64,000 bases of DNA from Acidobacteriota bacterium (GTDB lineage: Bacteria; Acidobacteriota; Vicinamibacteria; Vicinamibacterales; UBA2999). The stretch covers positions 30,361 to 94,360 of the forward strand of contig JADZCN010000114.1 of NCBI GenBank assembly GCA_020851565.1. The letters are read 5' to 3'. The notes under the pieces are model-generated. The model saw only the letters and a list, made by a program, of their open reading frames with translations, made no database searches and was not told where the DNA came from. This document shows positions 7,775 to 62,031 of this stretch, piece by piece (the stretch's first letter is position 1; each line of letters starts with the position of its first letter). The translations under genes were made by a program, and so were the position numbers.

Positions 7775-7949
7775 GGATGAATTGTAGCGGCCCGACGGCA
7801 GCCGCGGCGTGGGGGGCACCTGCCACCGACGGTTCCGGGCCGCTCCGTGGCGATCGACCTCCCACGCCTCGGAAGGACCACGTCTCGCCAGTCTCGAGAG
7901 CCTGAGCCGATCCCGGGCTCCCTTCGGCCTAGAGAGCCAGGAGGCACCC

Positions 7950-9362
7950 ATGACGGTTCGCACTTCGCTTCGTTTCGTGCTCCTGCTCGCGGGAGCGATC
8001 ACACTGGCAGGAAGCGCCTCGTCCCGTGCGCTCGGTACCGGGCAGGCCGCCGGCGGCCAACCCGGACGACACGCTGGACCTGGAAAGGCCGGGACCCCCG
8101 GCCGCTTCGAGGTCTGGCTGGCCGACCAGTCGGACACTCGACCCGGCTTCGGCGGCCAGCTGCTGATCTATCGGGGCGCCGATCTCATGGGAAAGACGGC
8201 CGGCCGGGCCGAGCCGATCGAGCGGATCGATCTCGGCGGCGCGACTGCTGACCTGTGCCGCGCGACCACGGGGCGGAACCCGGTCCGACCGCACATGATC
8301 CTGTTCAACGAGCAGCACACGCACGCCGTGCTGTCGTTCGTGGCGAGCGGGCACGTGGTCATCATGGACGCGGCGGCCCGCACGCCGCTGTCGTGCATCG
8401 AGACCACGATCGGCAGCACGGGCACGCGGCAGGCGCACGCCGCGTTTCCAGCCCCGGACGGCTCCTACATCCTCGTCGCCAACCAGAACGGGAAGCGCCT
8501 CGAGCGGATCGACGCCGACTTCGAGGCCAACCGCTTCTCGCACAACCCCGCGGCGACGCTCGATCTCAGCACGTGCACGACACCCAGCGGACAGCCCTGC
8601 GAGCACCCCGATCTCCGTCCAATCAACTGGCCCATCTGTCCCATCATCGACTCGTCGAGCCGCTACGGGTTCGTCACGCTCCGCGGCGGCGGGCTGTTCG
8701 TCGTCGACGCGAGGGCCACGCCCATGGCCATCGTCGCCGAGTACGACAAAGGGACGGTCCGCGGGAACGGGTGCGGCGGCATCGAGGCGGCCGGACACAT
8801 GTTCATCAACTCCGGCGGGAGCCCGGTCAACGTGTCGAGCGGCGATCCGCATCATCCCGACCTGTACGGATTCGACGTGTATCGCTTCCCCTTGTCGGGG
8901 TTCGAGCCGGGGAACCCACCCAACACGCCCGCACCACTGCTGCTCCTGACCAAGCCCGGCATGTCCGACTCGCACGGCGCGGCGCTGGCCTCGAACCAGC
9001 GCTACCTGTGGGTCATGGACCGCCACGCCAACGTGGCCGAGATCGTCCACGTGAAGACCGGCCGTTGGGTGAAGACGGTGGCGCTCAGCGGCCGGTTGAG
9101 CGAGGATCCGGCGCCGGATCTGGCAGACCGCGCGCCCGATGGCAGCCGCCTGTTCGTCGCGCTTCGCGGCTCGGTGCCCCTCAGCGGCGATCCCCACAAC
9201 GCGACGGGAACGACGCCGGGCCTCGGTATCATCCAGGTCACGGGCGGTGGACGGGACGGTCGTCTTGCCGCCGTGGTGCCGCTCACAAATCCGTGGCAGC
9301 AGCCCGGGCAGGCGCCGGATGCACACGGCCTGCGCGTGCGGCTGACACCCCCGGCTCGCTGA
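7950..9362 (+). CDS. Secreted hypothetical protein (possibly beta-propeller/YVTN-like)
   Basis: In-frame part of ORF 7809..9362 from the ATG at 7950, preceded by AGGAGG. Signal peptide MTVRTSLRFVLLLAGAITLAGSASS. No confident family assignment. Confidence 0.6.
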   Translation: MTVRTSLRFVLLLAGAITLAGSASSRALGTGQAAGGQPGRHAGPGKAGTPGRFEVWLADQSDTRPGFGGQLLIYRGADLMGKTAGRAEPIERIDLGGATADLCRATTGRNPVRPHMILFNEQHTHAVLSFVASGHVVIMDAAARTPLSCIETTIGSTGTRQAHAAFPAPDGSYILVANQNGKRLERIDADFEANRFSHNPAATLDLSTCTTPSGQPCEHPDLRPINWPICPIIDSSSRYGFVTLRGGGLFVVDARATPMAIVAEYDKGTVRGNGCGGIEAAGHMFINSGGSPVNVSSGDPHHPDLYGFDVYRFPLSGFEPGNPPNTPAPLLLLTKPGMSDSHGAALASNQRYLWVMDRHANVAEIVHVKTGRWVKTVALSGRLSEDPAPDLADRAPDGSRLFVALRGSVPLSGDPHNATGTTPGLGIIQVTGGGRDGRLAAVVPLTNPWQQPGQAPDAHGLRVRLTPPAR

Positions 9363-9644
9363 CGCGGTGGCGTTCGGCGGTGAGCGTGAAGCTCGCGACG
9401 GGTACCGATGCGACCTGCTGAGCCGATCGGGCGCGCGTTGCCGCCTATCCTGACGACTGCGGGCGTCTGGAGGCGGGCGACTTGCGCCGAATGTTCGCCT
9501 GGGACCGGCTTCTCAGGCCGGGCGTGGAAAAGATCGGATCGACGTGGCGGGATCGAGGGCGATCTGTCGTTCTCCACGGTGGATGCCGCTTTCGCCGCCA
9601 TGAGGTCGTCGCCTCGCTCGGCAGGGCTGACCGCAGGCCGTCCC

Positions 9645-10250
9645 ATGCTCAAGGTTCCCGATTCGGGCGTGTCGGACCAGACGGGCGACCCCGCCGTCAC
9701 GGCGCTCCTGCGCCTGGCGCAGACCGATCGGCGCCAGGCCCTGGATGCACTCGTGCCGCTGGTGTACGACACGCTCCGGAGGATCGCCCGTCAGCAACTG
9801 GCGCGCGAGCGCCCGGGGCACACGCTGAGCGCGACCGCCCTCGCGCACGAAGCCTATGCGAGGCTCATCGGCCTGACGCGGATCGAGTGGCGTGACCGCG
9901 CGCACTTCTTCGCCGCGGCCGCTGGCGCCATGCGCCGCGTGCTCATCGACTATGCCGTGGCACGGAAGGCCCGGAAGCGGGGGGGCGGTGCGGCGGTCGA
10001 GATGGACCTGGCGGGCCTGGTCACGGATGACCGGGTTGAAGACGTCCTGTCCGTTCACGAGGCGCTCGTCCGGCTGGAGCGCGTGCACCCGCGCGCGGCG
10101 CGCGTCGTCGAGTGCCGCATCTTCGCCGGGATGACGATTGACGAAACGGCCGCCGCGCTGGACCTGTCGCCGGCCACCGTCAAACGGTACTGGGAGTTCG
10201 CCCGCGCCACGTTGACCCGGGAGCTGATGCACGCATGCACGCCTCGATGA
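9645..10250 (+). CDS. ECF-type RNA polymerase sigma factor (kinase-associated type)
   Basis: C-terminal 201 aa of ORF 9408..10250. Region-2-like DALVPLVYDTLRRIARQQL..TLSATALAHEAYARL and region-4 HTH RAARVVECRIFAGMTIDETAAALDLSPATVKRYW. The start is uncertain (ATG 9645 chosen). The stop overlaps the kinase start (ATGA at 10247-10250). Confidence 0.75.
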   Translation: MLKVPDSGVSDQTGDPAVTALLRLAQTDRRQALDALVPLVYDTLRRIARQQLARERPGHTLSATALAHEAYARLIGLTRIEWRDRAHFFAAAAGAMRRVLIDYAVARKARKRGGGAAVEMDLAGLVTDDRVEDVLSVHEALVRLERVHPRAARVVECRIFAGMTIDETAAALDLSPATVKRYWEFARATLTRELMHACTPR

Positions 10251-12922
10251 CCTCCGCGCCGACCACCAGCCGGCTGGGCGACCGCTGGGAGCGGTTGGCC
10301 GCGCTCTTCGAAGGGGCCCGGGCCCATCCGGAACCCGAGCGGTCCGCCTATCTGCGGGACGCACGCGCGAGCCCGCAGGAAATTGACGAGCTGCAAGCCC
10401 TGTTCGCGCTCGATTCGCGTCGGGCGGGGCCGGTCGAGCGATTGATGGCGGCCATCGGCCCTGCGCCGCGGGTCTGGCATACCGACGCGGCACGGTCGCT
10501 CGTGGGCCCCTACGAGATCCTTCGCGAGATCGGGCGGGGCGGCATGGGCGTGGTCTACCTCGCGCGCCGGGCCGACGGCGTGTACCAGCGGCTGGTCGCA
10601 CTCAAGCTGGCGCGCACGCCGGTGGTGGAGGGGGACCTGCGCGCCCGCTTTCTGGCCGAGCGCGACATCCTCGCCGGCCTGGCGCACCCGCACATCGCGC
10701 CGCTCTACGACGGCGGCGTCACCGACGACGGCCTGCCGTACTTCACGATGGAGTACGTGGACGGCCGCGCGATCGACGCCCACTGCGACGCCGAGAGGCT
10801 CGACGTGCGCGCGCGGATTCGCCTCTTCCTCTCCATCTGCAGTGCCGTTGCGGCCGCCCACCGTGCGCTGGTCGTTCATCGCGACTTGAAGCCGACCAAC
10901 GTGCTCGTGACTGCCGACGGCTCGGTGAAGCTGCTGGACTTCGGCATCGCCAAGCTGCTGGCCCACCCGGCGGACCGCGGTGACACGATGACGGCGGGGC
11001 AGCCGATGACGCCTGCCTATGCGAGCCCCGAACAGGTGCTCGGCCGTCCGGTGTCCACGGCGACCGACGTGTACGCCCTGGGCCTGCTGCTGTACGAGCT
11101 GCTGTGCGGCCGCCGCGCGCATCGGTTCACGTCGCGCGGCGCGGCCCACCTGGAGCAGGTGATCGTGCATACCGACCCGCTGCCGATGGCCGAAGCCCTG
11201 CGGCACCCGGACGAGTGGACGGCGGGGACGGCGGAGGAGATCGCCGGGGCGCGGCAGACCACGCCGTCACGACTGGCGCGCCAGCTGCGGGGCGACCTGG
11301 CGCGCATCACCGCCATGGCGATGCGAAAGGACCCCAACCAGCGCTACGCGTCGGCCGCGCACCTGGCGGAGGATCTGGAGCGCTATCTGGACGGCCGTCC
11401 TGTCGTCGCCCGAACGCCCTCGGTCGTGTACCGGGTGGCGCGCTTCGTCAGGCGCCACCGTCTCGGCGTGGTGGCCACGAGCCTCGGCGTCGTCGCGCTC
11501 ACCGGGTACCTGGGCCTCGCCATCCAGCACGCGAGAAACCTCGAGCGCACGGCCGAGCGGGAGCGTCAGGAGGCGGCCCGGGCTCGCGAGGTGGCGGACT
11601 TCGTGGTCACGCTCTTCGATGCGGCGGACCCGGACGTGGTCCAGCGCCGCGATGCCCCGATCACGCAGATGCTGGAGCGCGGACTGCAGCGCGCCGACGC
11701 GCTCGGCCACCAGCCGCAACTGCAGGCGCGCCTCCTGAACGCCATCGGGCGGGCCTACTTCAACCTGGGCCGGTATGACGACGCCCAGGCGATTGCCAGG
11801 CGGGCGTTGGACATCAGCCGCGCCACGGTCGGCGACATCCATCCGGATGTCGCGCGGGATTACCGGTTGCTCGGTCTCGCGACCGGCCAGCTGGGGCGCC
11901 AGAAGGAGGCCGTCGAGATGTTCCGGACGGCCCTCGAGGTTCGGCGCAGTACCGAGGGTCTCACCGGTGTGGAAGCCGCAGCGGACCTGCACTATCTGGG
12001 TTACGCGCTTGCTCAGGTGGGCGAGCTGGAGGAAGCGGAGCGCCGGCTTACCGCCGCGCTGGAGATGCGGCGCGCGCTGTTGCCCGCCGGACACGAGGAG
12101 ATCGCCACGAGTCTGGCCGGAGTGGCGTTCCTGCGGGGCCGCCAGGGCCGGCCGCGCGACTCGGTGGACCTCTACCGGGAAGCGCTCGCCCTGCGGCTCG
12201 CCCGTCTGGGTGAACGGCATCCCGAAGTCGCCCGAGGGCGCCAGAACCTCGCCAACGCGCTCAGCACGGCCGGCCTTCACGACGAGGCCGCAGAGGAATT
12301 TGCACGCGCCCTCTCGGTGTACCGAGCCGTCTATGGCGAGAAGCACCCGAGCATCGCGACCACGCTCAACAACCTCGGCACGCTCGAAGGTCGGCGCCGA
12401 CGGGATGCCGATGCGATTCCCTATCTGAGGGCGGCTCTCGACATGCGGGCCGAGCTGCTCGGAGCGGACCATCCATCGACCCTCCTGTCGAAGGCCAACC
12501 TGGCCACGGTGCTGGGACGCGCCGGTCGGCCGGCGGAAGGAGAAGCGCTGCTGCGCGATGTGCTGGCCCGCGGGGAGGGGCGTCCCGACGTGGCCATGGG
12601 CGTCTCGCGGCCCGTGGCCCTGAGTAACCTCGCCCACCTGCTCTGGCTGCAGGGGAAGCTGGCGGCAGCAGAGGCTACGGCACGCGAGAGCCTGGCCCTC
12701 CTGCGAGGGCGCGAAGTCAATCCGCTGACCGAAGCCACGCTGCTGGCCACGCTGGGCCGGACCCTGACCTCGCGGGGGCAGTACGGAGAAGCCGAGGACG
12801 TTCTGCGGCGCGCGCTGGAGATCCGGCAGTCCCGTCTTGGGCCCGAACACGCCGGCACGGCTCATGTGCGCGACCTCCTGAAGGAGCTGCAGCGCCGCCG
12901 CCTCGCATCTGCCCGGCCCTGA
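10247..12922 (+). CDS. Serine/threonine protein kinase with transmembrane segment and C-terminal TPR repeats
   Basis: Hanks kinase motifs GRGGMGVVY, HRDLKPTNVLV, DFGIAKLL, YASPEQ. A hydrophobic segment follows (LGVVATSLGVVALTGYLGLAI), then about 10 TPR-like repeats. Alternative start is ATG 10235. Confidence 0.9.
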   Translation: MTSAPTTSRLGDRWERLAALFEGARAHPEPERSAYLRDARASPQEIDELQALFALDSRRAGPVERLMAAIGPAPRVWHTDAARSLVGPYEILREIGRGGMGVVYLARRADGVYQRLVALKLARTPVVEGDLRARFLAERDILAGLAHPHIAPLYDGGVTDDGLPYFTMEYVDGRAIDAHCDAERLDVRARIRLFLSICSAVAAAHRALVVHRDLKPTNVLVTADGSVKLLDFGIAKLLAHPADRGDTMTAGQPMTPAYASPEQVLGRPVSTATDVYALGLLLYELLCGRRAHRFTSRGAAHLEQVIVHTDPLPMAEALRHPDEWTAGTAEEIAGARQTTPSRLARQLRGDLARITAMAMRKDPNQRYASAAHLAEDLERYLDGRPVVARTPSVVYRVARFVRRHRLGVVATSLGVVALTGYLGLAIQHARNLERTAERERQEAARAREVADFVVTLFDAADPDVVQRRDAPITQMLERGLQRADALGHQPQLQARLLNAIGRAYFNLGRYDDAQAIARRALDISRATVGDIHPDVARDYRLLGLATGQLGRQKEAVEMFRTALEVRRSTEGLTGVEAAADLHYLGYALAQVGELEEAERRLTAALEMRRALLPAGHEEIATSLAGVAFLRGRQGRPRDSVDLYREALALRLARLGERHPEVARGRQNLANALSTAGLHDEAAEEFARALSVYRAVYGEKHPSIATTLNNLGTLEGRRRRDADAIPYLRAALDMRAELLGADHPSTLLSKANLATVLGRAGRPAEGEALLRDVLARGEGRPDVAMGVSRPVALSNLAHLLWLQGKLAAAEATARESLALLRGREVNPLTEATLLATLGRTLTSRGQYGEAEDVLRRALEIRQSRLGPEHAGTAHVRDLLKELQRRRLASARP

Positions 12923-13012
12923 GCCGGTTCGGGCACGACTTCGGCCTAACAAAGCAGGGGCGCATCCATCCGCGCTGGAGCGGATCGACAACGCGGCCCA
13001 GGCAGGTGTTCC

Positions 13013-13714
13013 ATGTCCTTGAAGATCGGAGACCTCGCGCCCGACTTCCGCGCCCAGACCACGGAGGGCGTCATCGACTTCCACGACTGGCTTGGCGACC
13101 GGTGGGGCGTGCTCTTCTCGCACCCGAAGGACTTCACCCCGGTGTGCACGACGGAGCTCGGTCTGCTGGCGACGCTCAGGCCCGAGTTCGACCGCCGCGG
13201 TGTGCGCGTGATCGGCCTGAGCGTGGACGACCTGGACGCGCATCGCGAGTGGTCGAAGGACATCCGTAGGGTGACGGGAGCGGCGCCGAACTTTCCCCTG
13301 ATCGCGGACCATGACCGGCGCGTGGCGTCGCTCTACGACATGCTGGATGCGCAGGCCGGCGACACGGCCACGGTTCGATCGGTCTTCGTGATCGGCCCGG
13401 ACAAGCGCATCAAGCTGACGTTGACCTATCCGGCCAGCACGGGCCGAAACTTCGCCGAGCTGCTGCGCGCAATCGATTCGCTGCAGTTGACCGCACGTTA
13501 CCAGGTGGCCACGCCCGTCAACTGGCAGCCGGGCGAGGACGTGATCATCGTGCCTGGCGTCTCGGACGCGGCCGCCCGCGAGCGCTACCCGCAGGGATGG
13601 CACGCGCCCGCTCCGTACCTGCGATACGTCCCGTCGCCCGTCCCCACGCGGCCGGCGTCGCACGCGGCCTCAGGGCCCGGGCCGGCCCTGGAATCCGGCC
13701 GGGCATCGAGTTAG
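13013..13714 (+). CDS. 1-Cys peroxiredoxin (Prx6-type)
   Basis: PKDFTPVCTTEL peroxidatic-Cys motif. The length and the NFPLIAD..VRSVFVIGPDKRIK pattern are typical. The 3' end overlaps the convergent gene by 4 nt. Confidence 0.9.
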   Translation: MSLKIGDLAPDFRAQTTEGVIDFHDWLGDRWGVLFSHPKDFTPVCTTELGLLATLRPEFDRRGVRVIGLSVDDLDAHREWSKDIRRVTGAAPNFPLIADHDRRVASLYDMLDAQAGDTATVRSVFVIGPDKRIKLTLTYPASTGRNFAELLRAIDSLQLTARYQVATPVNWQPGEDVIIVPGVSDAAARERYPQGWHAPAPYLRYVPSPVPTRPASHAASGPGPALESGRASS

Positions 13715-14943
13715 CGCTGCCCGCCCCGGAACACCGTGCCGCCCCTCATGACGAAGGCCACCCGGGCGAGGGCATCGATGTCGGTGAGGGGGTTCCCGTC
13801 CACGGCCACGAGATCGGCCGAGAAGCCCGGGGCGATCGTGCCAATCTCCCTGCCGAGGCCGAGGGAGTCGGCCGAGACGGACGTGAGCGAACGGATCGCC
13901 TCCGCGGGCGACTGGCCGGACTTCACGCGCTCGAAGAGCTCGCGCATGTTCTGCCCGTGCGCGCCGGCCACGGCATCGGTGCCCATCACGATCTTCAGTC
14001 CGTGCGTCTTCAGCGCGGCCGAGAACATCGCGTCCTTCATCCCGAGGGCCTTCTCCATCGCGGCGAAGCCCTCCTCCGTGTAGTTGCCCACGCCGAGGAA
14101 GCGCGCCTTGTTCTCCAGGTAGTTCTGCGTCACCAGGCCGATGTTCGGATCGAAGAACATGCCGCGGTCCGCCAGCAGCTTCAGTGCCTCCGGCGTGGCC
14201 AGTCCGCCGTGTTCGACTACCGTGCAGCCCGCGCGCGCGGCGCGCATCATCGACTCGGGGCTGTGCGCATGGACCATGGACCGGAGGCCCTGCGCGCGCG
14301 CCTCGGCACAGACGGCATCGAGCTGCTCCTGGCTCAGCGTTGGGGTGCCGCCGTCGCGGATGCTGGCCGACGCGAAGATCTTCACCAGGTCGGCGCGGTC
14401 CGCCTTGCGCTGCCGCACCTGGGCGCGCAGCTCGTCGGGCGTGAGCCTGGCGTTGCTGACCTGTCCGAGCGAGGTGAGAATGCGCGGCCCCGGGAGCACC
14501 CCTCGCGCGATGGCGTCGCGGAGCGGCTTGTCGCGAGGCGAGCCCACGCTCTGGACGGTGGTGAAGCCCGCCATCAGGGTGACGTAGGCGTTCTCGGCCG
14601 CGTAGAGCGCGTTCTGCTCCGGCGGCTCGGGTCCGGTGTGGTAGCGGCCCTCGGCGTTGAAGTGCCAGTCGATGTGGACGTGGGTGTCGATGAAGCCGGG
14701 GAGCAGGGTCGCCTTGCCGAGGTCAATCGTGACCGGCGCGTCCGGCCCGCCGACGCGGACGATGCGGCCGTCCCGAATCGCGACGGTGTTGCCGGGGAGG
14801 ATGCGCCCGTCGCCGTTGATGATGGTCCCGGCCCGCAGCGTGACTTCGGTGGCGGGCCTGCCGGACTGCGCCGATACGGAGGCGGCGCTCGCGAGGAGGA
14901 TGGCGCTGAGCCGCAGGAGGTGCGAAGGGATGACGCGGAGCAT
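13711..14943 (-). CDS. Amidohydrolase family protein, secreted
   Basis: Signal peptide (LLRLSAILLASAASVSAQ), FIDTHVHIDWH metal motif, and paralog-like similarity to 5215..6498. Confidence 0.85.
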   Translation of the reverse strand: MLRVIPSHLLRLSAILLASAASVSAQSGRPATEVTLRAGTIINGDGRILPGNTVAIRDGRIVRVGGPDAPVTIDLGKATLLPGFIDTHVHIDWHFNAEGRYHTGPEPPEQNALYAAENAYVTLMAGFTTVQSVGSPRDKPLRDAIARGVLPGPRILTSLGQVSNARLTPDELRAQVRQRKADRADLVKIFASASIRDGGTPTLSQEQLDAVCAEARAQGLRSMVHAHSPESMMRAARAGCTVVEHGGLATPEALKLLADRGMFFDPNIGLVTQNYLENKARFLGVGNYTEEGFAAMEKALGMKDAMFSAALKTHGLKIVMGTDAVAGAHGQNMRELFERVKSGQSPAEAIRSLTSVSADSLGLGREIGTIAPGFSADLVAVDGNPLTDIDALARVAFVMRGGTVFRGGQR

Positions 14944-17778: not shown

Positions 17779-17915
17779 CATTGAGCGATTGCTGATTGGC
17801 GATTGGGCGATTCACTGAAGATCGAGCGATTGGGGCATTGGGCATTGAATCGGGCGATTGGGTGATTGCGGCATCGGGCGATTCGTTGCTGGCAGACGTC
17901 GGCCCGTCGTCGCCC
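17779..17915. repeat. GATTG/CAATC palindromic-element family, half copy (E1)
   Basis: CCATTGAGCGATTGCTGATTGGCGATTGGGCGATTC...GGGCATTGGGCATTGAATCGGGCGATTGGGTGATTGCGGCATCGGGCGATTCGTTGCTGGCAG. It is homologous to one arm plus the centre of the elements at 27847 and 31022. Confidence 0.85.
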
Positions 17916-20900
17916 ACCGGGCGACCGCATAGGGGAACGTGTTGATCCAGACGGTGGGCGGCAGGTCGTCGAAGGTGTAGCTCTCGTTGAGCGTCGCGCT
18001 CGCCGTCCAGTCGGCCTGGAACGCCTTGGCTTTCAGCGTCACGGTCCCGGCCGCAAACGTGAGCGGCGACACGTACTCGCTCGAGGCCGCGGTCGGCTCG
18101 CTGCCGTCGGTGGTGTAGCGAATCGTCGCCCCAGCCGGGCCGCTGAGCACAATGGCCTCCGTGGGCTGATAGATCCCGGCGGGCGGCGTGGCTGTGGGCG
18201 TCGCCAGCGTGCCCTGGGTGATCGTGATCGCGGAGGTCGTCACCGCGCTCGGCGTCCAGCCCGTCCGGAACGCGCGCGCCTGCACGGTCGTCGTAGTGGT
18301 GACGGCAATGGCGCCCGTGTAAAGCGGGGAACCCTCGTCCGGCGTGCTGCCGTCCACGGTGTAGCGCAGCACCGCCTGCGGGTCCGCCGCGCTCAGCGTC
18401 ACCGTCTGCGGGCCGACGTATGTGCCCGTCCCCGGCGCCACCACAGGCGCCGCCGGCTGCAGCATGTACGTGGCAGACGCTACCACGCTCGGCGCCCGAT
18501 CCGGCACCCACGCCCGCGCCTTCAGCGTCGTCGTGCCCGTGATCAGCACGTCGCCGGTCGCCGGCACCTCGGGATCGCTCGCCGTCGGGTCCACGCCGGT
18601 TGTCGTGTAGCGCAGCGTCGCGCCCGGCACGGCGCTCGTGATGAGCACGATCTGCTCAGTGGCGTACGTGCCGGACGCGAGGCTCAGCGTGGGCGGCGGC
18701 GGGCTCCAGCGCCCCGGCGCCGTCCACGCCAGCGCCGGCGCCAGTCGGTTCGAGGTCGTGCCATCGCCCAGTTGCGAATAGTAGGCCTCGCCCCACGGTG
18801 TAGCGCAGCACGGCCTGCGGGTCCGCCGCGCTCAGCGTCACCGTCTGCGGACCCACATACGTCCCCGTCCCCGGCGCCACCGTCGGCGCCGCGGGCTGCA
18901 GCATGTAGGTGGCCGACGCCACCACGCTGGGCGCCCGATCCGGCACCCACGCCCGCGCCTTCAGCGTCGTCGTGCCCGTGATCAGCACGTCGCCGGTCGC
19001 CGGCACCTCGGGATCGCTCGCCGTCGGGTCCACGCCGGTCGTCGTGTAGCGCAGTGTCGCCCCCGGCACGGCGCTCGTGATGAGCACGATCTGCTCAGTG
19101 GCGTACGTGCCGGCCGCCAGGCTCAGCGTGGGCGGTGGCGGGCTCCACCGCCCCGGGGCCGTCCACGCCAGCGCCGGCGCCAGCCGGTCCGCCGTGGTGC
19201 CATCGCCCAGTTGCGAGTAGTAGCCGTCGCCCCAGGTCCACACGCCGCCGTCCATCGCCACCGCCACGCTGTGCGCGCTGCCCTGCGCCAGCAGCGTCAC
19301 GCCGGTGGGCCCGCTCAACTCGGTCGGGGTCAGCACGCTCGACGTCGTGCCGTTCCCCACTTGTCCCGACGTGTTCGTACCCCAGCCGAGCAACACCCCA
19401 GTGGGGCTGAGCGCGCCGCTGTGGTTGGTGCCGGCCGCCAGCACCGCCGCACTGGTCCCGGGCACCATGACGGGGACCGGATGGTCCGTCTGGCTGCCCA
19501 GTCCCAGCTTCCCACCCCCGCCATCCCCCCACGCCCACAGCGCGCCGCTGCGCGTCCGCGCCAGGCTGTGGAACGCGCCGGCCGCCACGTGGACCACGTC
19601 CGACAAACCGCCGATCGCCACGGGCGTCAGCCGGCTGGTGGTCGTCCCATCACCTAATTGGGAGGAAGTGTTGGCGCCCCAGGCCCACACCTGGCCCTCC
19701 GCCGTCACGGCCAGGTTGTGATTCGCCCCCGCCGCGATGGCAACGACGTTCGCGAGCCCATTCACCAGCAGCGGCACGGACGACGAGCCCGTCGTGCCCT
19801 GGCCGAGCTGACCGCTCGCGCCGTAGCCGAAGGCGTACACCTGGCCGGTACTCGCGAGCACGAGGCTGTGCGAGGCGCCCGCGGCCACCGCGACGATGGG
19901 CGGGAGCCCTCCGATGGGCACCGGCCGGCTGCGGTTCGACGAGGTCCCATCCCCCAGGCGCCCGTACGCGTTGTAGCCCCACGCCCAGAGCTGGCCGTCG
20001 GCGGTGGCCGCCAGGCTGTGCAGCCCGCCCGCCGCCACCGCCACGACGCCGGTGAGCGTCGGCACCAGCACCGGCGTCGGGCGCGTGGTGCTGGTGCCGT
20101 CGCCCAACTGCACATTGGTGTTGAACCCCCACGCGTACACCATGCCCTCGGGCGTGGCCAGCAGCGTGTGGCGATCCCCGGCCGACCCCGCACCGCCACT
20201 GAGGGGCGCTGTCAGGCTGTACGTGCCCGTCGCCACCGCGCTATCGCCGGCGCCGGTGCGGAACGCGCGCACCTTGATGGTGTACTCGCCGATCAGGATT
20301 GGCGTCGCCGGGATGGCGGGGCTGCTCGCCGTGGGGTCCGTACCATCGAGCGTCCAGCGCAGCGTCGCGCCGGGGTCCGGGCTCGTCACCGTCAGCGCGG
20401 TGCCCGGGGCGTAGCTCCCGGAGGGCAGACTCAGCACCGGCGTGCTCGCGACCACGCTGTAGGCCTGGGTGCTCACGGCGCTGGCCGTGTAATCGGGATG
20501 GAAGGCCTTGGCGCGCACGGTCGCGCTGACGTCCACGGGGAAGGGGCCCCCATAGAGCGGCGAGCCGGTGGTCGGCGTGCCGCCATTCACCGTGTAGTGG
20601 ATGGCCGCGAAGGGCTGCGCCTCCAGCGTCACCATCACCTGTCCCGTGAACGTGCCGGCCCCCGGCGTGATGGTCGGCGCCGTCAGCGTGCCGAAGTTCA
20701 TCGTGTACGTCGCCGTCCGCACGACCGAGTCGGACCAGTTCGCCTTGAACCCGACCGCCTTCAGCGTGGTCGTCGTCGCGATAGTGAGCGCGGACGCGTA
20801 GGCCGGAGACGCGGGCGTCGGGTCCGTGCCATCCACCGTGTAGCGGATCGTCGCGCCCGCCCTGCTGGTGGCAAGCGTCACCGTGCGCGCGCTCGTGTAC

Positions 20901-22197
20901 GTCCCCGCCGAGGGCGATACCGACGGCGTCGCCACCTGCATCGTGTAGGTGGCGCTGGCGGTGTTGCCGGGTGGCATGCCGGACTTCCACGCCCGGGCCT
21001 TCAGCGTCTGCGTCTGGGTCACTCCACGCTGCCGCCGGAGGCCACCACGGGATCCGATTCCGTCGGCTCCGCCCCGTTCTGCGTGTAGTGGATGGTCGCG
21101 CCCGTGGTGACGACCGACACCGTGACGGTCCGCTCGGTGGTGTAGGTGCCGGAGGCCACGCTGAAGGTGGGCGTGGCCACGCGCCAGGCAAAGTCGGCGC
21201 CACTGATCGACACGGGCGCCGACACATTGGTCGTCGCGCCGTCGCCCAGCTGGCTGGAGTTGTTCCGGCCCGCCACCCACACGTAGCCAAGCGGGGTGAT
21301 AGCCAGACTGAAGCCGTGTCCCGCCGAGAAGGCCGCCACCTCGCCCACGTTGGCCACCGTCACGGGGGTCGTCCGGTCGGTCGTCGTCGCGTCCCCGAGG
21401 CCACCGTAAGTGTTGTCGCCCCAGGCCCAGAGCGTGCCGTCCGCCCCAGCGGCGAGTGTGTGGTCCGAGCCCGCGTCGAGGGCGGCGAGGCCCGAGAGCC
21501 CGGTGACGGACACGGCCGTCGTGCGCTGATACGCCGTGGTGCCATCGCCCCACTGTCCCGACGCGTTGCGTCCCACGCCCATGGCGGTACCGTCGGCGAG
21601 CAGGAACATCGAGTGTCCCGAGCCGCCCGATGCGGCCACGACGGTGGTCAGACCGATCGCCTGCGCGAGCGTCGTGCGCGGTGTGGTCGTGCCATCGCCC
21701 AATTGCCCGTTGGTATTGGCGCCAGTCCCCCACACCGACCCGTCCGCCTTCACCACCAGCGTGTGCTCCCCTCCCGCGGCGATGGCCTGCGCTCCCGTGC
21801 TGAGCAACCACGGCGCGGTGACATTCGTGGTCGTCCCATTACCGATTTGGCCCACGCTGTTCGCGCCCCAGACATAGACATCGCCCGCGCTCGTCAGCGC
21901 CATGGAGTGCGTGTGTCCCGCGGCAATCGCCACGACCGAGGTCAAGGCCAGCGCCACGGGCGTCCTCCGGTTCGTGGTGGCCCCATCGCCCAGCTGACCA
22001 GAGGAATTGTTCCCGAATGCATACACCGTGCCCGCACTGCTCAAGGCCAGCGAGTGCGCGGTGCCGGCGGCGACGGCGACGATGTCCGCGAGCCCGGCGA
22101 CCTGCTGCGGCACGCGGCGGGTCGTGAGGGTGTTGTCGCCAAGCTGGCCACTGCTGTTGCTGCCAAAGGCCCAGACCGTGCTGTCGGATTTCACCAC
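17812..22197 (-). pseudogene. Disrupted giant RCC1-repeat / chitobiase-C-like (Ig-like) repeat protein, three reading-frame fragments
   Basis: Fragment 22197->21019 has RCC1 blades with GxNxxGQLGDG motifs, then an ATIHYTQNG..P Ig-like domain. Fragment ~21027->18656 is the in-frame part of ORF 18656..21811: about 6 ATxRYTxDGxxP domains, a second RCC1 propeller, and more Ig-like domains. Fragment ~18790->17812 completes it. The frames change at ~21020 (1-nt deletion) and at the 439-bp duplication junction at ~18790. No start codon or signal peptide precedes 22197 in frame. Confidence 0.75.
18352..19229. repeat. Direct tandem duplication, 2 x 439 bp, inside the RCC1 gene
   Basis: 18352-18790 aligns with 18791-19229 at a constant 439-nt offset. 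Examples: TAGCGCAGCA at 18362 and 18801; GATCAGCACG at 18541 and 18980; GGCGTACGTG at 18661 and 19100. About 8% of positions mismatch by eye, but a central ~190-bp stretch is near-identical. 439 is not a multiple of 3. Confidence 0.9.
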
Positions 22198-22482
22198 CAG
22201 CGTGTGCTGGTAGCCGGCCGCGATGCGGCGCGCGGCAGGCGCGGGAGGCTGGGCGGAGACGAGGTGCGGAAGCGTGAAGAAGGAAGGGGGTGACCCGGTG
22301 TCACACCAAGGCAGACGGACGCAGGATCGTGAATTCCGCGGACGTGGCCCAAGGACCTGCCGAACTCCTGCCGCCGGCAGGCCGTCAGCGTCTCGGAAGT
22401 GCGGTCTTGTCGTCCAGGATGGTCAACAACCAGCCCGATCGACCACGCAGTGGAAGGAAACCGAATGCCCAATCACGACCGC

Positions 22483-24999
22483 TCACTCGTAGCGCAGCGC
22501 GCGTACAGGTTCCACCGCGGCAGCCCTTCGCGCGGGCAGATAGCCCGCGAGCGCGCCCACCAGGGCGAGCGCGGCGGCGGCCGCCAGCAGCGTGAGCGGG
22601 TCCGTGGGCGACAAGCCGAAGAGCTGCGAGGACACGACGCGGCTCAGGGCCAGCGCCGCGGGGATGCCGATCAGCACGCCGACGCCGGTGAGCACGGCCA
22701 CTTCCCGCAGCACCAGCCACACGACGCTGCCGCGCTCCGCCCCGAGCGCGATGCGGATGCCAATCTCCCGCGTGCGGCGCGCGACTGTGTAGGACATCAG
22801 GCCGTAGAGGCCGACCGCCGCCAGCAGCGTGGCCAGCAGGCCGAACGCCGCCGAGAGCACCGCCAGCATGCGCTCGGTGAACACGGCCTCGTCAATCGTC
22901 TGCTCCATCGTCGTGACGTTGTAGAGCGGCAGGCTGGCGTCGCGGCGGCCAACGGCGTCCCGGATTCGCTCGACGAGGCCGGCACGGCCCTCCGGCGTGG
23001 AGCGCACGTAGACCGTCATCCCCGTCAGCTCCGTGCTCTGCTGCAGCGGCGTGTAAGCGAACCGCCGGACCTGGTTGTCCTCCGTCGTCCCCTCGCGCAT
23101 GGTGCCGTGCAGCGAGTCCTTCACCACGCCCACGATCTCGATGGCGCCGGGGTCGTTCAGCACGCGCCAGCCGAAGCGGCGCCCGATGGGGTTCTCCGAC
23201 CCGAAGTAGTACCGCGCGAAGGTCTCGTTGACGACGGCGACGAGCGGCGCGCCCTCGACGTCCCTCGGCGTGAACTCGCGCCCCAGCAGCAGCGGCTGCC
23301 CCATGGTACGGAAGTAGTCCGGTCCCACCTCGTTGGTCCACGGGTTCATGTTCTCGTCGGGCTTCGTCTCGTACCCCTGCACCTGGATGGTGCGGCTGGA
23401 GATGCTGTCGGTGAGCACAGGCTCGGCTGCCATGGAGACACCGGCGACGCCGGTGACGGCCTGCAGATCCTGCTGCAAGGCCGCATAGAACTGCTTGATG
23501 CGCGCTTGCGAGTAGCCTGCCAGCTCGGGGCTGATGGCGAACGACACGAGGGAGGTGGCGTCGAAGCCCGGGTTCAGGTGCTTCAGGTTGTACAGGCTGC
23601 GCGCGAAGAGCCCCGCGCCCGCCACCAGCAGCATGGAGAGCGCCACCTGGGCCACCACCAGTCCCTTGCGCAGCCGTGCGTGCGCGCGTCCGCCACTGAG
23701 CGCCCCGGCCTCTTCACGGAGTGTGCGGTTCATGTCGGGCCTGGACGCCTGGAGTGCCGGAGCGAGCCCGAAGACCACCGCGGTGACGAGCGACACGGCC
23801 AGGGCGAAGAGGCCCACGCGGAGGTCCGGCGTGGTGGAGAGCATCCGCGTGGTCGAACCGGTCGACGGCAGCAGCCCCACCAGCAGCTCGCCCACCCAGA
23901 CCGACAGCACCAGCCCCACGGCGCCTCCGGCGAGCGACAGCAGCAGGCTCTCCAACAGCGCCTGGCGGACGATGCGGCCGCGGCTGGCGCCGAGCGCCAG
24001 GCGCACGCCGATCTCCTTCTGCCGGGCGGCGGCCCGCGCCACCAGCAGGCTCGCGACGTTTGCGCAGGCGATGAGCAGCACCATTCCCACCATGCCCATC
24101 AGCACGACCACCGGCGCGCTGAAGCCCTGCCGCAGTCCGGACAGGCCGCGCCCCGCCGGCTCCATCTCGATGCTCTTCGCGAGGAACCGCTCCTTGAAGA
24201 GCGCGCTGCCCCTGGCAAACCCAGGCACGGCCTCGAGGTCGTGCGCGTTGATCTGCTTGTAGAGCACGTCGAGCCGCGCGCGCGCCGCCTCGAGCTCGAG
24301 CCCGGGCTTCAGCCGCCCCACGATGTTCACGAACCGCGTCTGACGGTCGTCGAGGCCGTCCCAGGTGGGCGTGATCTGCGCCTTCATCGTCAGCGGCACG
24401 AACACATCCGGGCTGCTGAGCGCGACCACACCTGCAAAGCCCGCGGGCGCCACGCCAATCACGGTCATCGGCGTGGTGTTGATCGTCAGTGCCTGGCCGA
24501 GCACCTGGGGACTGCCCGCGAAGCGGCGCATCCAGTACGCGTGGCTCAGCATCATCACGGGGTGTCCCGCTCTCACGCGATCGTCGTCCGGCGACAAGGC
24601 GCGGCCGAGGGCAGGGCGGGCCCGCAGGACCTCGAAGGTGTTGCCGGAGACCATCTCTACGCTGACGCGCTCGGCCTGGCCGTTCTGCACCAGCGTGGCT
24701 GATGCGGGCGCTCGGGCCACGAGGCCGGAAAACACGTCGCTGCGGTCCCGCAGGTCCTGGTACATCGGGTACGAGAACGTCCGATCGTTCATCGTCCGCC
24801 CGCTGAAGGGCCCCGGGCCATCCAGCTGGACGAGCTCATCCGGCCGATCCACGGGCAGCATCCGGAGCATGAGCTGGTCCATCAACGAGAAGATGGCCGT
24901 GTTGGCGCCGATGCCGAGTCCCAGGGTGAGCACGACCACCAGCGTGAAGGCCGGGGCGTGGAAGAGAGTGCGCAGCGCGTATCGAAGATCGGTGAGCAT
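22483..24999 (-). CDS. MacB/FtsX-type duplicated orphan permease (ADOP-like ABC permease)
   Basis: 838 aa. N-terminus MLTDLRYALRTLFHAPAFTLVVVLTLGLGIGANTAIFS, two FtsX-like 4-TM modules each followed by a large periplasmic domain, and C-terminus PVRALRYE. No adjacent ATPase. Confidence 0.9.
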   Translation of the reverse strand: MLTDLRYALRTLFHAPAFTLVVVLTLGLGIGANTAIFSLMDQLMLRMLPVDRPDELVQLDGPGPFSGRTMNDRTFSYPMYQDLRDRSDVFSGLVARAPASATLVQNGQAERVSVEMVSGNTFEVLRARPALGRALSPDDDRVRAGHPVMMLSHAYWMRRFAGSPQVLGQALTINTTPMTVIGVAPAGFAGVVALSSPDVFVPLTMKAQITPTWDGLDDRQTRFVNIVGRLKPGLELEAARARLDVLYKQINAHDLEAVPGFARGSALFKERFLAKSIEMEPAGRGLSGLRQGFSAPVVVLMGMVGMVLLIACANVASLLVARAAARQKEIGVRLALGASRGRIVRQALLESLLLSLAGGAVGLVLSVWVGELLVGLLPSTGSTTRMLSTTPDLRVGLFALAVSLVTAVVFGLAPALQASRPDMNRTLREEAGALSGGRAHARLRKGLVVAQVALSMLLVAGAGLFARSLYNLKHLNPGFDATSLVSFAISPELAGYSQARIKQFYAALQQDLQAVTGVAGVSMAAEPVLTDSISSRTIQVQGYETKPDENMNPWTNEVGPDYFRTMGQPLLLGREFTPRDVEGAPLVAVVNETFARYYFGSENPIGRRFGWRVLNDPGAIEIVGVVKDSLHGTMREGTTEDNQVRRFAYTPLQQSTELTGMTVYVRSTPEGRAGLVERIRDAVGRRDASLPLYNVTTMEQTIDEAVFTERMLAVLSAAFGLLATLLAAVGLYGLMSYTVARRTREIGIRIALGAERGSVVWLVLREVAVLTGVGVLIGIPAALALSRVVSSQLFGLSPTDPLTLLAAAAALALVGALAGYLPARRAAAVEPVRALRYE

Positions 25000-26546: not shown

Positions 26547-26588
26547 GGACCCGCTGGTTGGACGCAGGGCCGACAGGCGTGGATCCGG

Positions 26589-26708
26589 GTGCGGGCGGGT
26601 GCGAACAGGTGCGAACAGGTGCGGGCGGGTGCGGGCGGGTGCGGGCGGGTGCGGGCGGGTGCGAACGGGTGCGGGCGGGTGCGAACAGGTGCGGGCGGGT
26701 GCGAACAG
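26589..26708. repeat. 12 x 10-bp tandem array with two unit states (GTGCGGGCGG / GTGCGAACAG)
   Basis: Read directly. Unit order is G A A G G G G A' G A G A. It lies in the divergent gap between starts 26546 (-) and 26728 (+). The same family occurs at 54643-54807 and, reverse-complemented, at 40505-40560. Confidence 0.95.
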
Positions 26709-26727
26709 GTGACGTGAGGGGAGGCAG

Positions 26728-27274: not shown

Positions 27275-27853
27275 ATGCTTCCCGCTGAACTGCAGGACTT
27301 GATCGACCAGGTCGACGCCGCCGAGGCCGACGCGCGGACGTTGGTCCGCGGGCTCGACGACCGCCAGGCGAACTGGCAGCCGGATGGTGGTCAAGCGTGG
27401 AGCATCGCGCAGTGCCTGGACCACCTCGCGCGCATGAACAGCTTCTACGTCGAGGCCGTCCTGCCGCGCGTGCGGCGGGCGGCCGAGGGCTCGGTGGCGC
27501 CCTTCGAGTCGCTGGCGCCGACGTGGCTCGGGCGCAAGTTCGTCGAGTCGATGGAGCCGCCCGTGACGCGCCGCTTCAAGGTCCCTGCCGCGCGCGTGGC
27601 GCCTGCCTCCGACATGCCGGTCGCCGACGCCCTGGCCGCCTTCGGCAACAGCCACACCCGCTACCGCGAGCTGGTGCGGCTGTGCGCGGGCCTCGATCCG
27701 AACCGCGTCCGCGTGCCCAACCCGTTCTTCAAATGGGTGTGGATGAGGGCCTCCACGGTGCTCCTCGTCATTCCCGCGCACGACCGTCGCCACCTCTGGC
27801 AGGCTCGCCGGGTTCTCGCGCGGCCCGACTTCCCGAGCACCGCTGTCCATTGA
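27275..27853 (+). CDS. DinB family protein
   Basis: 192 aa. WSIAQCLDHLARMNSFY and IPAHDRRHLWQARRVL His-containing helices are typical of the DinB/DinB_2 four-helix bundle. The stop TGA (27851-53) lies inside the CCATTGAGCG terminus of the repeat element. Confidence 0.75.
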   Translation: MLPAELQDLIDQVDAAEADARTLVRGLDDRQANWQPDGGQAWSIAQCLDHLARMNSFYVEAVLPRVRRAAEGSVAPFESLAPTWLGRKFVESMEPPVTRRFKVPAARVAPASDMPVADALAAFGNSHTRYRELVRLCAGLDPNRVRVPNPFFKWVWMRASTVLLVIPAHDRRHLWQARRVLARPDFPSTAVH

Positions 27854-28129
27854 GCGATTGCAGATTGGTGATTGAGTGATTCATTGGGTGATTGGCGATT
27901 GACGCATCGGGCATTCGGATTGAGTGATTCAGGGATTGAGCGATTGCCTCATTGGGGGCTGAGAGCCGACGGCCAGTGACAGCGTGGTCGCCGGGCGGCG
28001 ACGAATCGCCGGATGCCCCAATCACCCAGTCGCCCAATCCAATGCCCAATGCCCAATCGTCAATCACCCAAGGAATCGCTCAATCAGCAATCGGCAATCG
28101 CCAATGGACGCGCGACGGCTCACAGCACC
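27847..28129. repeat. GATTG/CAATC palindromic element, full copy (E2)
   Basis: Left arm CCATTGAGCGATTGCAGATTGGTGATTGAGTGATTCATTGGGTGATTGGCGATTG. Right arm CAATCGTCAATCACCCAAGGAATCGCTCAATCAGCAATCGGCAATCGCCAATGG (ends 28107). A conserved flank ACGCGCGACGGCTCACAGCACC follows. Confidence 0.9.
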
Positions 28130-28337
28130 GTCGATGTCCCAGCCCTCGCGCAGCCTCCTGCGCCCGATATTCGGCGGTCCCGGCCCGGCGCGGCCCCGAA
28201 GTGCCGAACCTCCGGCGGCCAGGCGGCGCGCCCCCCTGGGACATGCGCCAGCGAGCATGACCGCCGTGGCACGATCATTGATTTGACGACGGCGGAGCCG
28301 CGCGCTCGGTCCCTGGTGCTCGACCAGGAGGAATGTC

Positions 28338-31028
28338 ATGCGCGCCCCCTCGTTGTCATTCGTTCGTGCCGTCGTGGCTGTGTCTATCGCCGCGTTTGGA
28401 ATCGCCACGCCTGCACATGGCCAGCAGGGGTGGTCGAGCAGCGTGGTGACGCTGTCGGTGCCGCAGGTGGACCACGACGGGTTGCAGGTCTGGCTTCGAA
28501 AGCGGCCGGCGCTGGCGGCCGATCCGGCCGGCAATGTCGTCGCCGTCTGGGTCCAGCCGGTCTCCGCGTTCGCCGCCGTCGTCCAGGCCGCGCGGTATTC
28601 GGCGGCAGCCCGCGCATGGGGAGCGCCGGTCACGCTTTCGGGGGCAGGTATCCCCACCGAACCGCGGGTCGTGGTCGACAGCGGAGGAAACGCGCTCGCC
28701 GTGTGGGGGAGGTTCAATGGTCCGGTGCAGTCCGCGCGCTACCTGCGGGACTCCAATGCATGGACCGGCCCGATCGAGGTCGATTCAGGCATCTTGTTTG
28801 CGGACGAGCTGGATCTGGTCGCCGACGCCGCGGGCAATGCGTTCGCCGTCTGGGTGCAAAGAAACGCGTCGGCAGACGTCGTCCCAGGGGTCTATGCGGC
28901 ACGTTTCAGCGCCGGCAGCAACGCGTGGGCGACTGTCGTCCCGATGTCGGCCACGGACGCGTGGCAGCCACGGATTGCCGTGGATGCCTCCGGCAATGCC
29001 ACAGTGCTCTGGGTTGCCCGGGTGGGCACCAGCCTGGACTGGGTGGTTCACGCGCGCCGCTATGTGGCCGGCGCCGGAGCCTGGACCGAGGCGGTCGAGC
29101 TCTCGTCCGGTGGCAGCGCCGCGCCGTTTGGTATCAACCTTCGCATCGTCTCCGATGCGACGGGGCAGATGACCGCAGCGTGGTCGCTGTCTCAGTTCGA
29201 TGAAATGGAGGACGTGACCTACACGACGGTTCAGGCGCGTCGCTACACTCCGGCGACTGGGTCGTGGGGGCCGGTGGTCGACCTGTCGGCTGCCGGGGGA
29301 GATGCGCGCTGGCCGACGCTGGCGGCCGACGGGACTGGCGGTGCCTTTGCCGCCTGGCTCCAGTACTCACCGGACGGCGACGTCGCGCGGGTCCAGGCGA
29401 CTCGCTTCTCGGCTGATGCCGGAGGCTGGAGCGCACCGGTCGATCTCGGTCCGCCTTGTACGTGGGGACGACCCGGTACTTTCCCCGAAGTCGTCGCCGA
29501 CCACGAGGGCAATGCGTTTGTGATCTGGGTCCAGACCTTCGAGGAGCCGGTGCCCGGCAGCGCGCTCCAGGCGGCCCGATACGTGGCAGCTACTGCATCC
29601 TGGGGCGCCGCCGTCATCCTCGAGGTGGGCGCCCCCGAGCATCAGACCGCGGTCGATTCGTTGGGCAACGTCGTCGTCGTCTGGTCCTACGGTGCGCGTG
29701 CGGCCAGGTTCGTGGTGACGGCGGGCGCGTGGACGCCATCCGTCACCGTCGGGCCGGGACCGTCGGTGTTGGCCATTGCCCCGGGGATGGCCGTCGATCC
29801 GCTGGGCAACGTGACGCTGGCCTGGAACCGGTTCGACAGGTTCACCGAGGTATCGGACATCGCGAGCAACCGTTGGGTGGCCGCGCCATTGGCCCCCACC
29901 ATCGGCGTCGTCAGCCCGGGGGCCGGCTCGCTGAGCGTGGCGTTCTCGCCGCCGCCCACTTCGGAACCGTTGTTCGCTCCGACCAACTACGCGTACTCGG
30001 TCGATGACGGCGCGACGTGGCACCTGCGAGATCCGGCGTCCGCGGCGTCGCCGGTGTTGATCGCCGGGCTCACGGACTTCGTTCCCTGCAGGGTGCGGCT
30101 GGTCGCGATCAATCGCGCCGGCCCTGGACTGGCATCTTCGTCCGTTCTGGCGGTGCCACATCCGGTTCCGTTGGCGCCACGAGAGCTGACGGCCACATCG
30201 ATTGTCGGCAACACCGTCACGTTGTCATGGATCGCTCCGCAAGGCGGCATCCCGCCGACGGGGTACGTCCTCGAAGGCGGCGTTCACCCCGGCGAGGTCC
30301 TGGCCAGCATTCCCACGGGGAGCATCGCACCGCAATTCACGTTCGAGGCGCCGGCAGGCGCGTTCTACGTACGCGTCCATGCGGTTGCCGGCACGCTGCG
30401 CAGCGCACCCTCCAACGAGATTCAAATCGTCGTCCGCGTAGCAGCGCCACCATCGGCGCCGGTCAACCTCCGCGGCCTCGTCAACGGCTCCGACGTCGCG
30501 CTGTCGTGGACGAACACGTTCGACGGCGGTGCGCCCACGAGCCTGTGGCTGAGCGTCACTGGCGCGATCGAGACGGCGTTGCCGCTACCGATGGCAGAGA
30601 CCTTCACGTACGCGAACGTGCCGCCGGGCACTTACACCCTCCGCGTCGTCGCGGCAAATGCGGTGGGGACCAGCCCGTTCTCGAACGCGGTGACATTGAC
30701 TTTCCCTGGACCGTGTACGGGCGTGCCGGGCGTGCCGGTCAATCTCCAGACGTGGAAGGTCGGCAGCACGATCTTCGCGAGCTGGGACGCCCCGGTGAGT
30801 GGGCCGGCGGCGACGGGGTACGGCGTGTTCGTCTCCGGCGCGTATGTCGGTGGCTTCACGACGACCGCGCGCACGCTCTCGGGTGTGGCGGGGCCCGGTG
30901 AGTACGTCATCAGCGTGGCCGCGACCAACGCGTGCGGGACGGGGCCGGCGACGGCGTCGCAAACGGTTGTCCTTCCGTGGCTCGCGCCGTCACGAACAGG
31001 CGTCATGCGCGCTCGCGGCGTCCATTGA
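28338..31028 (+). CDS. Secreted protein: nine ~45-aa repeats (probable beta-propeller) followed by 3-4 fibronectin type III-like domains
   Basis: 896 aa; AGGAGGA SD; signal peptide ending ATPAHGQQ. Repeats have the form D..GN(A/V)xxVW..(15-25 aa)..ARY/ARF....AW..PV.L, nine times. The C-terminal half has FN3-like modules (LSVAFSPP.., VTLSWIAP.., VALSWTNT.., IFASWDAP..). Confidence 0.75.
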   Translation: MRAPSLSFVRAVVAVSIAAFGIATPAHGQQGWSSSVVTLSVPQVDHDGLQVWLRKRPALAADPAGNVVAVWVQPVSAFAAVVQAARYSAAARAWGAPVTLSGAGIPTEPRVVVDSGGNALAVWGRFNGPVQSARYLRDSNAWTGPIEVDSGILFADELDLVADAAGNAFAVWVQRNASADVVPGVYAARFSAGSNAWATVVPMSATDAWQPRIAVDASGNATVLWVARVGTSLDWVVHARRYVAGAGAWTEAVELSSGGSAAPFGINLRIVSDATGQMTAAWSLSQFDEMEDVTYTTVQARRYTPATGSWGPVVDLSAAGGDARWPTLAADGTGGAFAAWLQYSPDGDVARVQATRFSADAGGWSAPVDLGPPCTWGRPGTFPEVVADHEGNAFVIWVQTFEEPVPGSALQAARYVAATASWGAAVILEVGAPEHQTAVDSLGNVVVVWSYGARAARFVVTAGAWTPSVTVGPGPSVLAIAPGMAVDPLGNVTLAWNRFDRFTEVSDIASNRWVAAPLAPTIGVVSPGAGSLSVAFSPPPTSEPLFAPTNYAYSVDDGATWHLRDPASAASPVLIAGLTDFVPCRVRLVAINRAGPGLASSSVLAVPHPVPLAPRELTATSIVGNTVTLSWIAPQGGIPPTGYVLEGGVHPGEVLASIPTGSIAPQFTFEAPAGAFYVRVHAVAGTLRSAPSNEIQIVVRVAAPPSAPVNLRGLVNGSDVALSWTNTFDGGAPTSLWLSVTGAIETALPLPMAETFTYANVPPGTYTLRVVAANAVGTSPFSNAVTLTFPGPCTGVPGVPVNLQTWKVGSTIFASWDAPVSGPAATGYGVFVSGAYVGGFTTTARTLSGVAGPGEYVISVAATNACGTGPATASQTVVLPWLAPSRTGVMRARGVH

Positions 31029-32610: not shown

Positions 32611-32701
32611 CTGCCTCCTGCTCCCTGACCCCTGCTCCCTGCTCCCTGCTCCCTGATCCCTGCTCCCTTATGGCTGATCCCTGATCCCTGATCCCTGATC
32701 C
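32611..32701. repeat. 8-bp unit array CTGCTCCC / CTGATCCC (about 10 units)
   Basis: CTGCCTCCTGCTCCCTGACCCCTGCTCCCTGCTCCCTGCTCCCTGATCCCTGCTCCC..GATCCCTGATCCCTGATCCCTGATCC. It is the reverse complement of the GGGATCAG array at 62385-62420. Confidence 0.95.
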
Positions 32702-52443: not shown

Positions 52444-52465
52444 CCCGGTGCCTCGCTTCCTCCCC

Positions 52466-53266: not shown

Positions 53267-53281
53267 GGGGGATGGTACTAC

Positions 53282-62008: not shown

Positions 62009-62031
62009 CCCGGCGTTACAATCAGCGTCGC

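Follow-up and report, generated by a model that had tools for sequence, protein, structure and literature searches.

The 64,000-nucleotide window analyzed here (positions 30,361 to 94,360 of contig JADZCN010000114.1 in assembly GCA_020851565.1) belongs to a metagenome-assembled genome (MAG) that NCBI lists as "Acidobacteria bacterium" (locus-tag prefix IT177, proteins MCC7180292-334) and carries on its minus strand a fragment of a gene built from RCC1 repeats and CHB_HEX_C_1 immunoglobulin-like (Ig-like) domains, within which a unit of 439 nt stands twice, head to tail. Rather than an evolving gene duplication, the two copies are alleles of one segment that stem from two lineages and stand joined out of register. 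The "gene" that hosts them is a dead 4.6-kb fragment, horizontally inserted without a native start or C-terminus and broken beyond the repeat. Once the sequence is repaired, Pfam recognizes 12 RCC1 repeats in two propellers together with seven CHB_HEX_C_1/Fn3_assoc Ig-like stretches, and the scores on the fragment (1e-133 for RCC1, 3e-102 for CHB_HEX_C_1) place both domain types of the RCC1/CHB_HEX_C_1 surface proteins in it. The pieces that flank the junction between the copies are annotated separately at NCBI, as MCC7180304 (P0001) and MCC7180303 (P0121). A single-copy counterpart of the segment, which we call haplotype A, is represented by four Logan contigs (L027-L030) from four other sequencing runs, reached via P0122, a cluster mate of the downstream fragment. 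The gene fragment and the parts of the repeat lie as follows.

17812..22197, minus strand: RCC1-repeat / CHB_HEX_C_1 (Ig-like) gene fragment, in three successive frames (22197-21019, 21022-18656 and 18648-17812)
18793..19231, minus strand: upstream copy U (A-type allele), with 2 differences from the single-copy contig L027 over 19462-18793
18354..18792, minus strand: downstream copy D (B-type allele), 93% identical to U and to L027
18793..18795: junction with the 3-nt overlap CCA, where the end of the B-type unit (plus strand ...GGCCTCGCC) is joined to the start of the A-type unit (CGGTGTAGCG...), 439 nt out of register
18656..18658, minus strand: premature stop, reached by the upstream frame 45 codons past the junction; the tail of P0001
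18491..18600, minus strand: 110-nt core, identical in U (18930-19039) and D
17981..18792, minus strand: the whole diverged B-type tract, made up of copy D and 370 nt downstream of it (812 nt), with ~73 substitutions and 2 indel differences relative to haplotype A

An earlier note on this DNA had described two copies at a constant 439-nt offset, and a computed repeat search bears this out: Tandem Repeats Finder reports an array at 18354-19234 with a period of 439, 2.0 copies, 93% matches, 0% indels and a score of 1552, which is the only long-period repeat within the window. In this minus-strand gene U is read before D, and the two differ at 30 positions per 439 nt in the phase chosen by the program, or at 32 when the copies are delimited as in the earlier note. 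The array spans 881 nt, that is, 2 x 439 + 3, which leaves the 3-nt ambiguity CCA at the join, and a diagnostic 45-mer across the junction (GTTGCGAATAGTAGGCCTCGCCCCACGGTGTAGCGCAGCACGGCC, 18771-18815) has a single occurrence in the window. The join is out of frame, also as described: the upstream frame reads ...AVLRYTV/GRGLLFATG... and runs on to its stop, and the remainder down to 17812 is open only in another frame. Deletion of one copy does restore an open reading frame (ORF), giving back ...AVLRYTVDGSTPDEGSPLY..., and the same reading stands uninterrupted in the independent single-copy contig L027 and in P0002, a 64%-identical homologue. The contrast between a near-identical center and more diverged ends is equally present, with 110 invariant nt at 18491-18600 and only 3 differences across 18491-18674. 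The exact blocks common to U and D measure 38, 52 and 110 nt and would break contigs built at k = 31.

The relation of each copy to haplotype A identifies them as alleles. L027-L030 are mutually 100% identical and all carry the 439-nt unit once, so that the comparison with single-copy strains proposed in the earlier note could be made, and its outcome is asymmetric: L027 and the window are the same over 233/233 nt of the upstream flank, and at 29 of the 30 sites where U and D differ L027 has the base of U (p = 6e-8). U is ~99.5% identical to haplotype A. Nor does the divergence end with the repeat. Beyond D, from 18346 to 17981, there are 43 further substitutions and 2 indels relative to haplotype A, with the differences at codon positions 3/2/1 numbering 26/10/7, and identity returns at 17980, from where 805/806 nt agree down to 17175. 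Over the B tract as a whole, ~9% of sites differ between the window and haplotype A, compared with 0.2% in the flanks, and the tract is thus a bounded stretch of foreign allele in a background that is 99.8% A-like.

The pattern of substitutions between U and D speaks to when they diverged. Twenty-four of the 30 differences fall at third codon positions of each copy's own frame, an excess that is significant against an even spread (p = 2e-7) and against a model in which one copy is neutral (p = 7e-4); there is no indel, and the ratio of nonsynonymous to synonymous divergence (dN/dS) is 0.11 at a dS of 0.21 (Nei-Gojobori). From this low ratio, the third-position bias and the lack of indels it follows that both copies diverged while translated, before they were joined. 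Outgroup sequences divide the U/D differences evenly (12 vs 9 for L003, 12 vs 12 for L001), which argues that U and D are two symmetric lineages and not one decaying copy. At 18812, 20 nt from the junction, U has a private synonymous change: its C stands in place of the G found in D, haplotype A, L003 and L001. This could be chance, a junction-associated mutation or a contig-end error.

The 110-nt core at the center is identical in haplotype A as well and differs by 1 nt in the sister-species remnant on L003. Other lineages thus conserve this stretch, and the gene conversion between the copies to which the earlier note had attributed the homogeneity of the central ~190 bp is unnecessary and was rejected. 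As an observation in its own right, the flanks of the core differ by 7-12%, mostly at synonymous sites, while the core itself is conserved across lineages, and this conservation of synonymous sites could reflect recent exchange between lineages or constraint at the nucleotide level. A paralogue elsewhere in the window was considered as the source of D and rejected, there being no third copy in the window. A protein search with the B-type fragment found neither an independent B allele nor a junction-dependent ORF, bringing up instead a remnant designated P0244, and no close relative exceeded 54% among the species-representative genomes, to which the source MAG does not belong, or 38% among JGI metagenome contigs.

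The gene that contains the repeat is itself defective. It lacks an unbroken reading frame, a start codon, an export signal and its own C-terminus, as is evident from its two ends and from a further lesion that the earlier note had missed.

22198..22482, minus strand: upstream end of the 4.6-kb insertion, 285 nt with no in-frame start codon and no signal peptide
21019..21024, minus strand: second lesion, a 1-nt frameshift (GTGGAG/TGACC) within a CHB_HEX_C_1 domain and outside any homopolymer
17782..17925, minus strand: downstream end of the insertion, where RCC1 homology stops at ...AVARW (~17914) and the ORF reads on to end inside a palindromic intergenic element, in its right arm

Adding one base at 21021 and dropping one copy of the repeat produces a single open frame of 1,391 codons. 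Upstream of its first RCC1 blade there is no start codon and no signal peptide, and comparison with P0002 places the cut of its C-terminus at the insertion boundary. The earlier picture of a "giant gene" split by a duplication accordingly survives in one part: the split is there, but an intact host is not, since the 4.6-kb inserted fragment was already broken at ~21020. We rejected poor sequence quality as an explanation for the frame breaks: the other genes, including those adjoining the fragment, are long and intact, independent contigs match the DNA at 100%, and of 10 window proteins tested, 8 have exact matches in the collection.

Comparison with sister species defines the boundaries of the fragment. 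Three contigs from them (L031, L033 and L035; 88-93% nucleotide identity) have no RCC1 gene at this locus and pass directly from an ABC-transporter permease gene to an M1 peptidase gene, with ~300 nt between them. Homology to the sister species ends at ~22480-22485, just past the permease stop, and picks up again at ~17900, at the very place where similarity to the best homologue, P0002, ends (...AVARW/ATTGRR...), and the RCC1 "giant gene" is therefore a 4.6-kb insertion. Relics of the same gene are seen elsewhere. In a sister MAG (GCA_050249615.1, contig JBFWQE010000044.1; L003 2276-2854), the ~400-nt remnant P0244 lies at a different locus and consists of an RCC1 5' end (83% to window 22255-22089) fused directly to the unit's core (91% identity with U, 89% with D), the structure of a 3-kb internal deletion of this RCC1 gene. 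Haplotype A has a 1-nt deletion of its own at the window-equivalent position 18139, which shifts the frame in the last Ig-like domain and leaves the 92-aa ORF P0122, and a 3-nt insertion at the equivalent of 18036; in another population, too, the fragment is thus decaying, independently of the window.

What the sequences show directly is that the copies are allelic, how far the tract reaches, what the junction reads and that the host gene is dead; to this we add an interpretation of how the junction arose. The reading that we favor, and that we hold to be evenly poised between right and wrong, is that the junction may be a real scar of one-sided illegitimate recombination, formed either in a single step resembling homology-facilitated illegitimate recombination (HFIR) or by a duplication and a later homologous import. 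The junction is known here from assembled MAG sequence alone, and we infer both its presence in real DNA and its mechanism. In the one-step form, an 812-nt tract of the ~7-13% diverged allele B would have entered a resident A-type copy of the dead RCC1/Ig-like fragment. The downstream end of the tract would have been resolved by an ordinary homologous crossover near 17981, and the upstream end would have been joined illegitimately at the CCA overlap, 439 nt out of register, so that the resident 439 nt were retained beside their incoming counterpart and the frame was broken. Such an event would work as HFIR does, a process that depends on DNA uptake, through RecA-dependent joining with one homologous anchor and one microhomology end. 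In the two-step form, slippage would have produced a duplication first, and a single-copy B allele would then have been imported by homologous recombination, with its pairing forced to end at the junction. The lesion would in either case be neutral, because the fragment was dead already: it is absent from the sister species, has no start or C-terminus and carries the other frameshift.

Several features of the locus fit such a scar. The tract is contiguous and non-resident, one of its ends is a homologous anchor, and its other end lies non-homologously at a 3-nt overlap. The CCA overlap falls within the 3-10 bp that illegitimate joins in HFIR use, according to PMC6382021, which cites de Vries & Wackernagel 2002 for it. 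Contigs of at least 11 other runs agree with the MAG at 100% over 1.1-2.2 kb, at two loci that lie either side of the fragment; runs with the window strain at 100% identity are SRR25528450-SRR25528471, SRR29092744, SRR29564171, SRR23814898 and SRR23814900. These runs and the runs carrying the A-type ORF P0122 form non-overlapping sets, which suggests that the B tract belongs to this strain, a recurrent clone with a non-A-type RCC1 3' end. The junction does not coincide with a variant boundary. A more specific proposition is that we may be looking at a natural HFIR footprint, left when two diverged alleles recombined in a still uncultivated clone of the Vicinamibacterales that turns up repeatedly across many public metagenomes; we consider this possible but slightly doubtful.

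A number of points weigh against a recombination scar of either kind. To our knowledge, competence is not an established trait in Vicinamibacterales. For a donor with homology on both sides, in-register recombination would be the normal outcome, for instance within the 110-nt identical core. The window sequence is a MAG, and the junction-dependent ORFs, P0001 and P0121, are recorded in no dataset beyond it. Finally, HFIR is rare even in the laboratory, where it occurs at 1e-2 to 1e-3 of homologous transformation (PMC6382021).

The MAG origin and the confinement of the junction-dependent ORFs to this one record count equally in favor of an assembly artefact, a reading that we regard as a serious possibility though on balance improbable. 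The repeat would then be a false "heterotype" duplication, in which two strains' versions of the same 439 nt were placed consecutively while the true genome has a single copy; strain versions that were too different would have been set in series by scaffolding, gap-closing, merging or curation of a sample assembly or co-assembly. Two haplotypes of a single locus are exactly what the copies are, the frame breaks at the join, where the overlap is a trivial 3 nt, and false tandem duplications derived from haplotypes are well documented in assemblies (PMC9516828). The earlier note had taken the divergence of the copies as an argument against an artefact, but adjacent diverged alleles are precisely what a false two-haplotype duplication looks like (PMC9516828). 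Such false duplications are, however, usually separated by a gap (PMC9516828), and there is no run of N or assembly gap between the copies or anywhere in the window. On general reasoning, moreover, a k-mer (de Bruijn) graph assembler cannot make a join with a 3-nt overlap in unbranched sequence without spanning reads, and a graph path that switched between strains would yield a single-copy mosaic and not two copies. De Bruijn graph assemblers are the usual tools for MAGs. The 132-kb contig is also base-perfect against at least 11 independent runs, which favors a largely clonal population, and the A-type and window-type populations were seen in sets of runs that do not overlap.

The model put forward in the earlier note, an older tandem duplication of 439 bp in place with subsequent divergence and later conversion of the central ~190 bp, now appears very improbable. 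It would account for adjacent copies with a 3-nt overlap at the join, as expected from replication slippage, and for the patchy distribution of identity. Under this model, however, U and D should be each other's nearest relatives or stand equally far from a single-copy relative, and the nearest relative of U is haplotype A: U stands at ~99.5% and D at 93% to that independent single-copy sequence, and a misassembly of L027-L030 is improbable because four runs give an identical sequence. The divergence of the B tract goes on for 370 nt outside the repeat, the out-of-frame copy still has the dN/dS of 0.11 and no indels, and the conserved core is common to haplotype A and the sister-species remnant, which leaves conversion with nothing to explain. 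Hardly credible, in our view, is a functional arrangement in which programmed frameshifting or phase-variable switching bridges the frames and a working surface protein gains a domain from the repeat. RCC1/CHB_HEX_C_1 proteins do form a large secreted or surface family, but this member has no start codon, no signal peptide and a C-terminus truncated at the insertion boundary; the window and haplotype A carry independent frameshifts at different sites; the gene is missing in the sister species; and neither frame break has a slippery or homopolymeric sequence.

Other elements of the window were recorded alongside the repeat. The palindromic element into which the fragment runs is a ~270-nt intergenic element that folds into a long, nearly perfect hairpin (DNA fold -97 kcal/mol, z = -11) with arms of short GATTG / CAATC repeats, and it is found at 27840-28115, 31006-31278 and 17782-17900 of the window and at 6430-6740 of L033. 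Two copies bracket a window-specific segment of 2.9 kb (28130-31015) whose ORF encodes fn3 and Y_Y_Y domains. The third is complete in the sister species, between the permease and M1 peptidase genes, and has lost its left arm to the RCC1 insertion. The hairpin element may be an insertion hot spot. Rfam has no match for any part of the window, the hairpin element included. A 5.9-kb segment (7791-13722) that holds a Ser/Thr kinase-TPR protein (10235-12922) and a peroxiredoxin (13013-13714) is missing from the sister species. Intergenic tandem repeats of short period (7-39 nt) are numerous (5053-5183, 26586-26711, 32617-32701, 47571-47642, 52377-52445, 53280-53411, 54643-54808, 58627-58687 and 61922-62009), and the 15-nt arrays at 5053-5183 and 53280-53411 are related as reverse complements (GAACCTCCGT / ACGGAGGTTC). 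Ten contigs from ten runs (L038-L047), which carry the universal stress protein gene, have a common end at 24889, 111 nt inside the permease gene, where paralogous permeases of this family have probably broken the assembly graph.

The significance of the locus is mainly that of a caution: a diverged, out-of-frame repeat in a MAG can mimic an ageing duplication with gene conversion and yet consist of two lineages' alleles. Codon-position statistics, the extent of the diverged tract and a single-copy relative together separate a segment duplicated where it stands from one joined there, and they can be applied routinely. If the junction is real, it would be among the few natural products of one-sided illegitimate recombination in an uncultivated bacterium of soil or water. 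It would also provide in-situ evidence that HFIR as defined in the laboratory operates in environmental Acidobacteriota, where it would create out-of-register "allelic duplications", and it would mean that dead gene fragments record such recombination events. No functional consequence for the organism is expected.

Among known systems, the closest in form is HFIR, for which PMC6382021 summarizes work in Acinetobacter baylyi, Streptococcus pneumoniae and Pseudomonas stutzeri (de Vries & Wackernagel 2002; Prudhomme 2002; Meier & Wackernagel 2003). As in HFIR, one end of the tract is homologous, the other lies at a 3-nt, GC-rich overlap in a non-homologous position, and the tract is shorter than 1 kb. 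In classical HFIR, however, the incoming DNA has no homologue in the recipient, whereas here it would be a 7-13% diverged allele that could pair in register, and the product is a duplication of a homologous segment. Classical HFIR is moreover a phenomenon of laboratory transformation, while the present case would be a natural footprint in an uncultivated member of the Vicinamibacterales, read off an assembly.

The locus likewise resembles a false heterotype duplication in that two diverged haplotypes of one locus stand side by side and produce a spurious gene structure. False duplications in genome assemblies were reportedly a subject of Kelley and Salzberg in 2010, and those of the heterotype kind are treated by Ko et al. 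2022 (PMC9516828). Those cases usually have a flanking gap and half the read depth and come from diploid eukaryotes, whereas the sequence here is free of gaps and the "haplotypes" would be bacterial strains in a metagenome. With tandem duplications mediated by microhomology, through slippage or template switching, the locus shares the head-to-tail order, the overlap of a few nt and a length that is not a multiple of 3; such duplications, however, give copies that are initially identical and mutually closest, and here one copy and 370 nt of its flank come from another lineage. Lastly, a bounded, ~10% diverged tract in a 99.8% identical background is typical of mosaic genes that arise from recombination between diverged alleles, as in variable surface-protein genes, but ordinary mosaic imports are in register at both ends and keep the frame, while here one end is out of register. 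We do not file the locus as a proven member of the HFIR class; under either reading, the event is of a kind already known, and the gene fragment in which it lies is dead.

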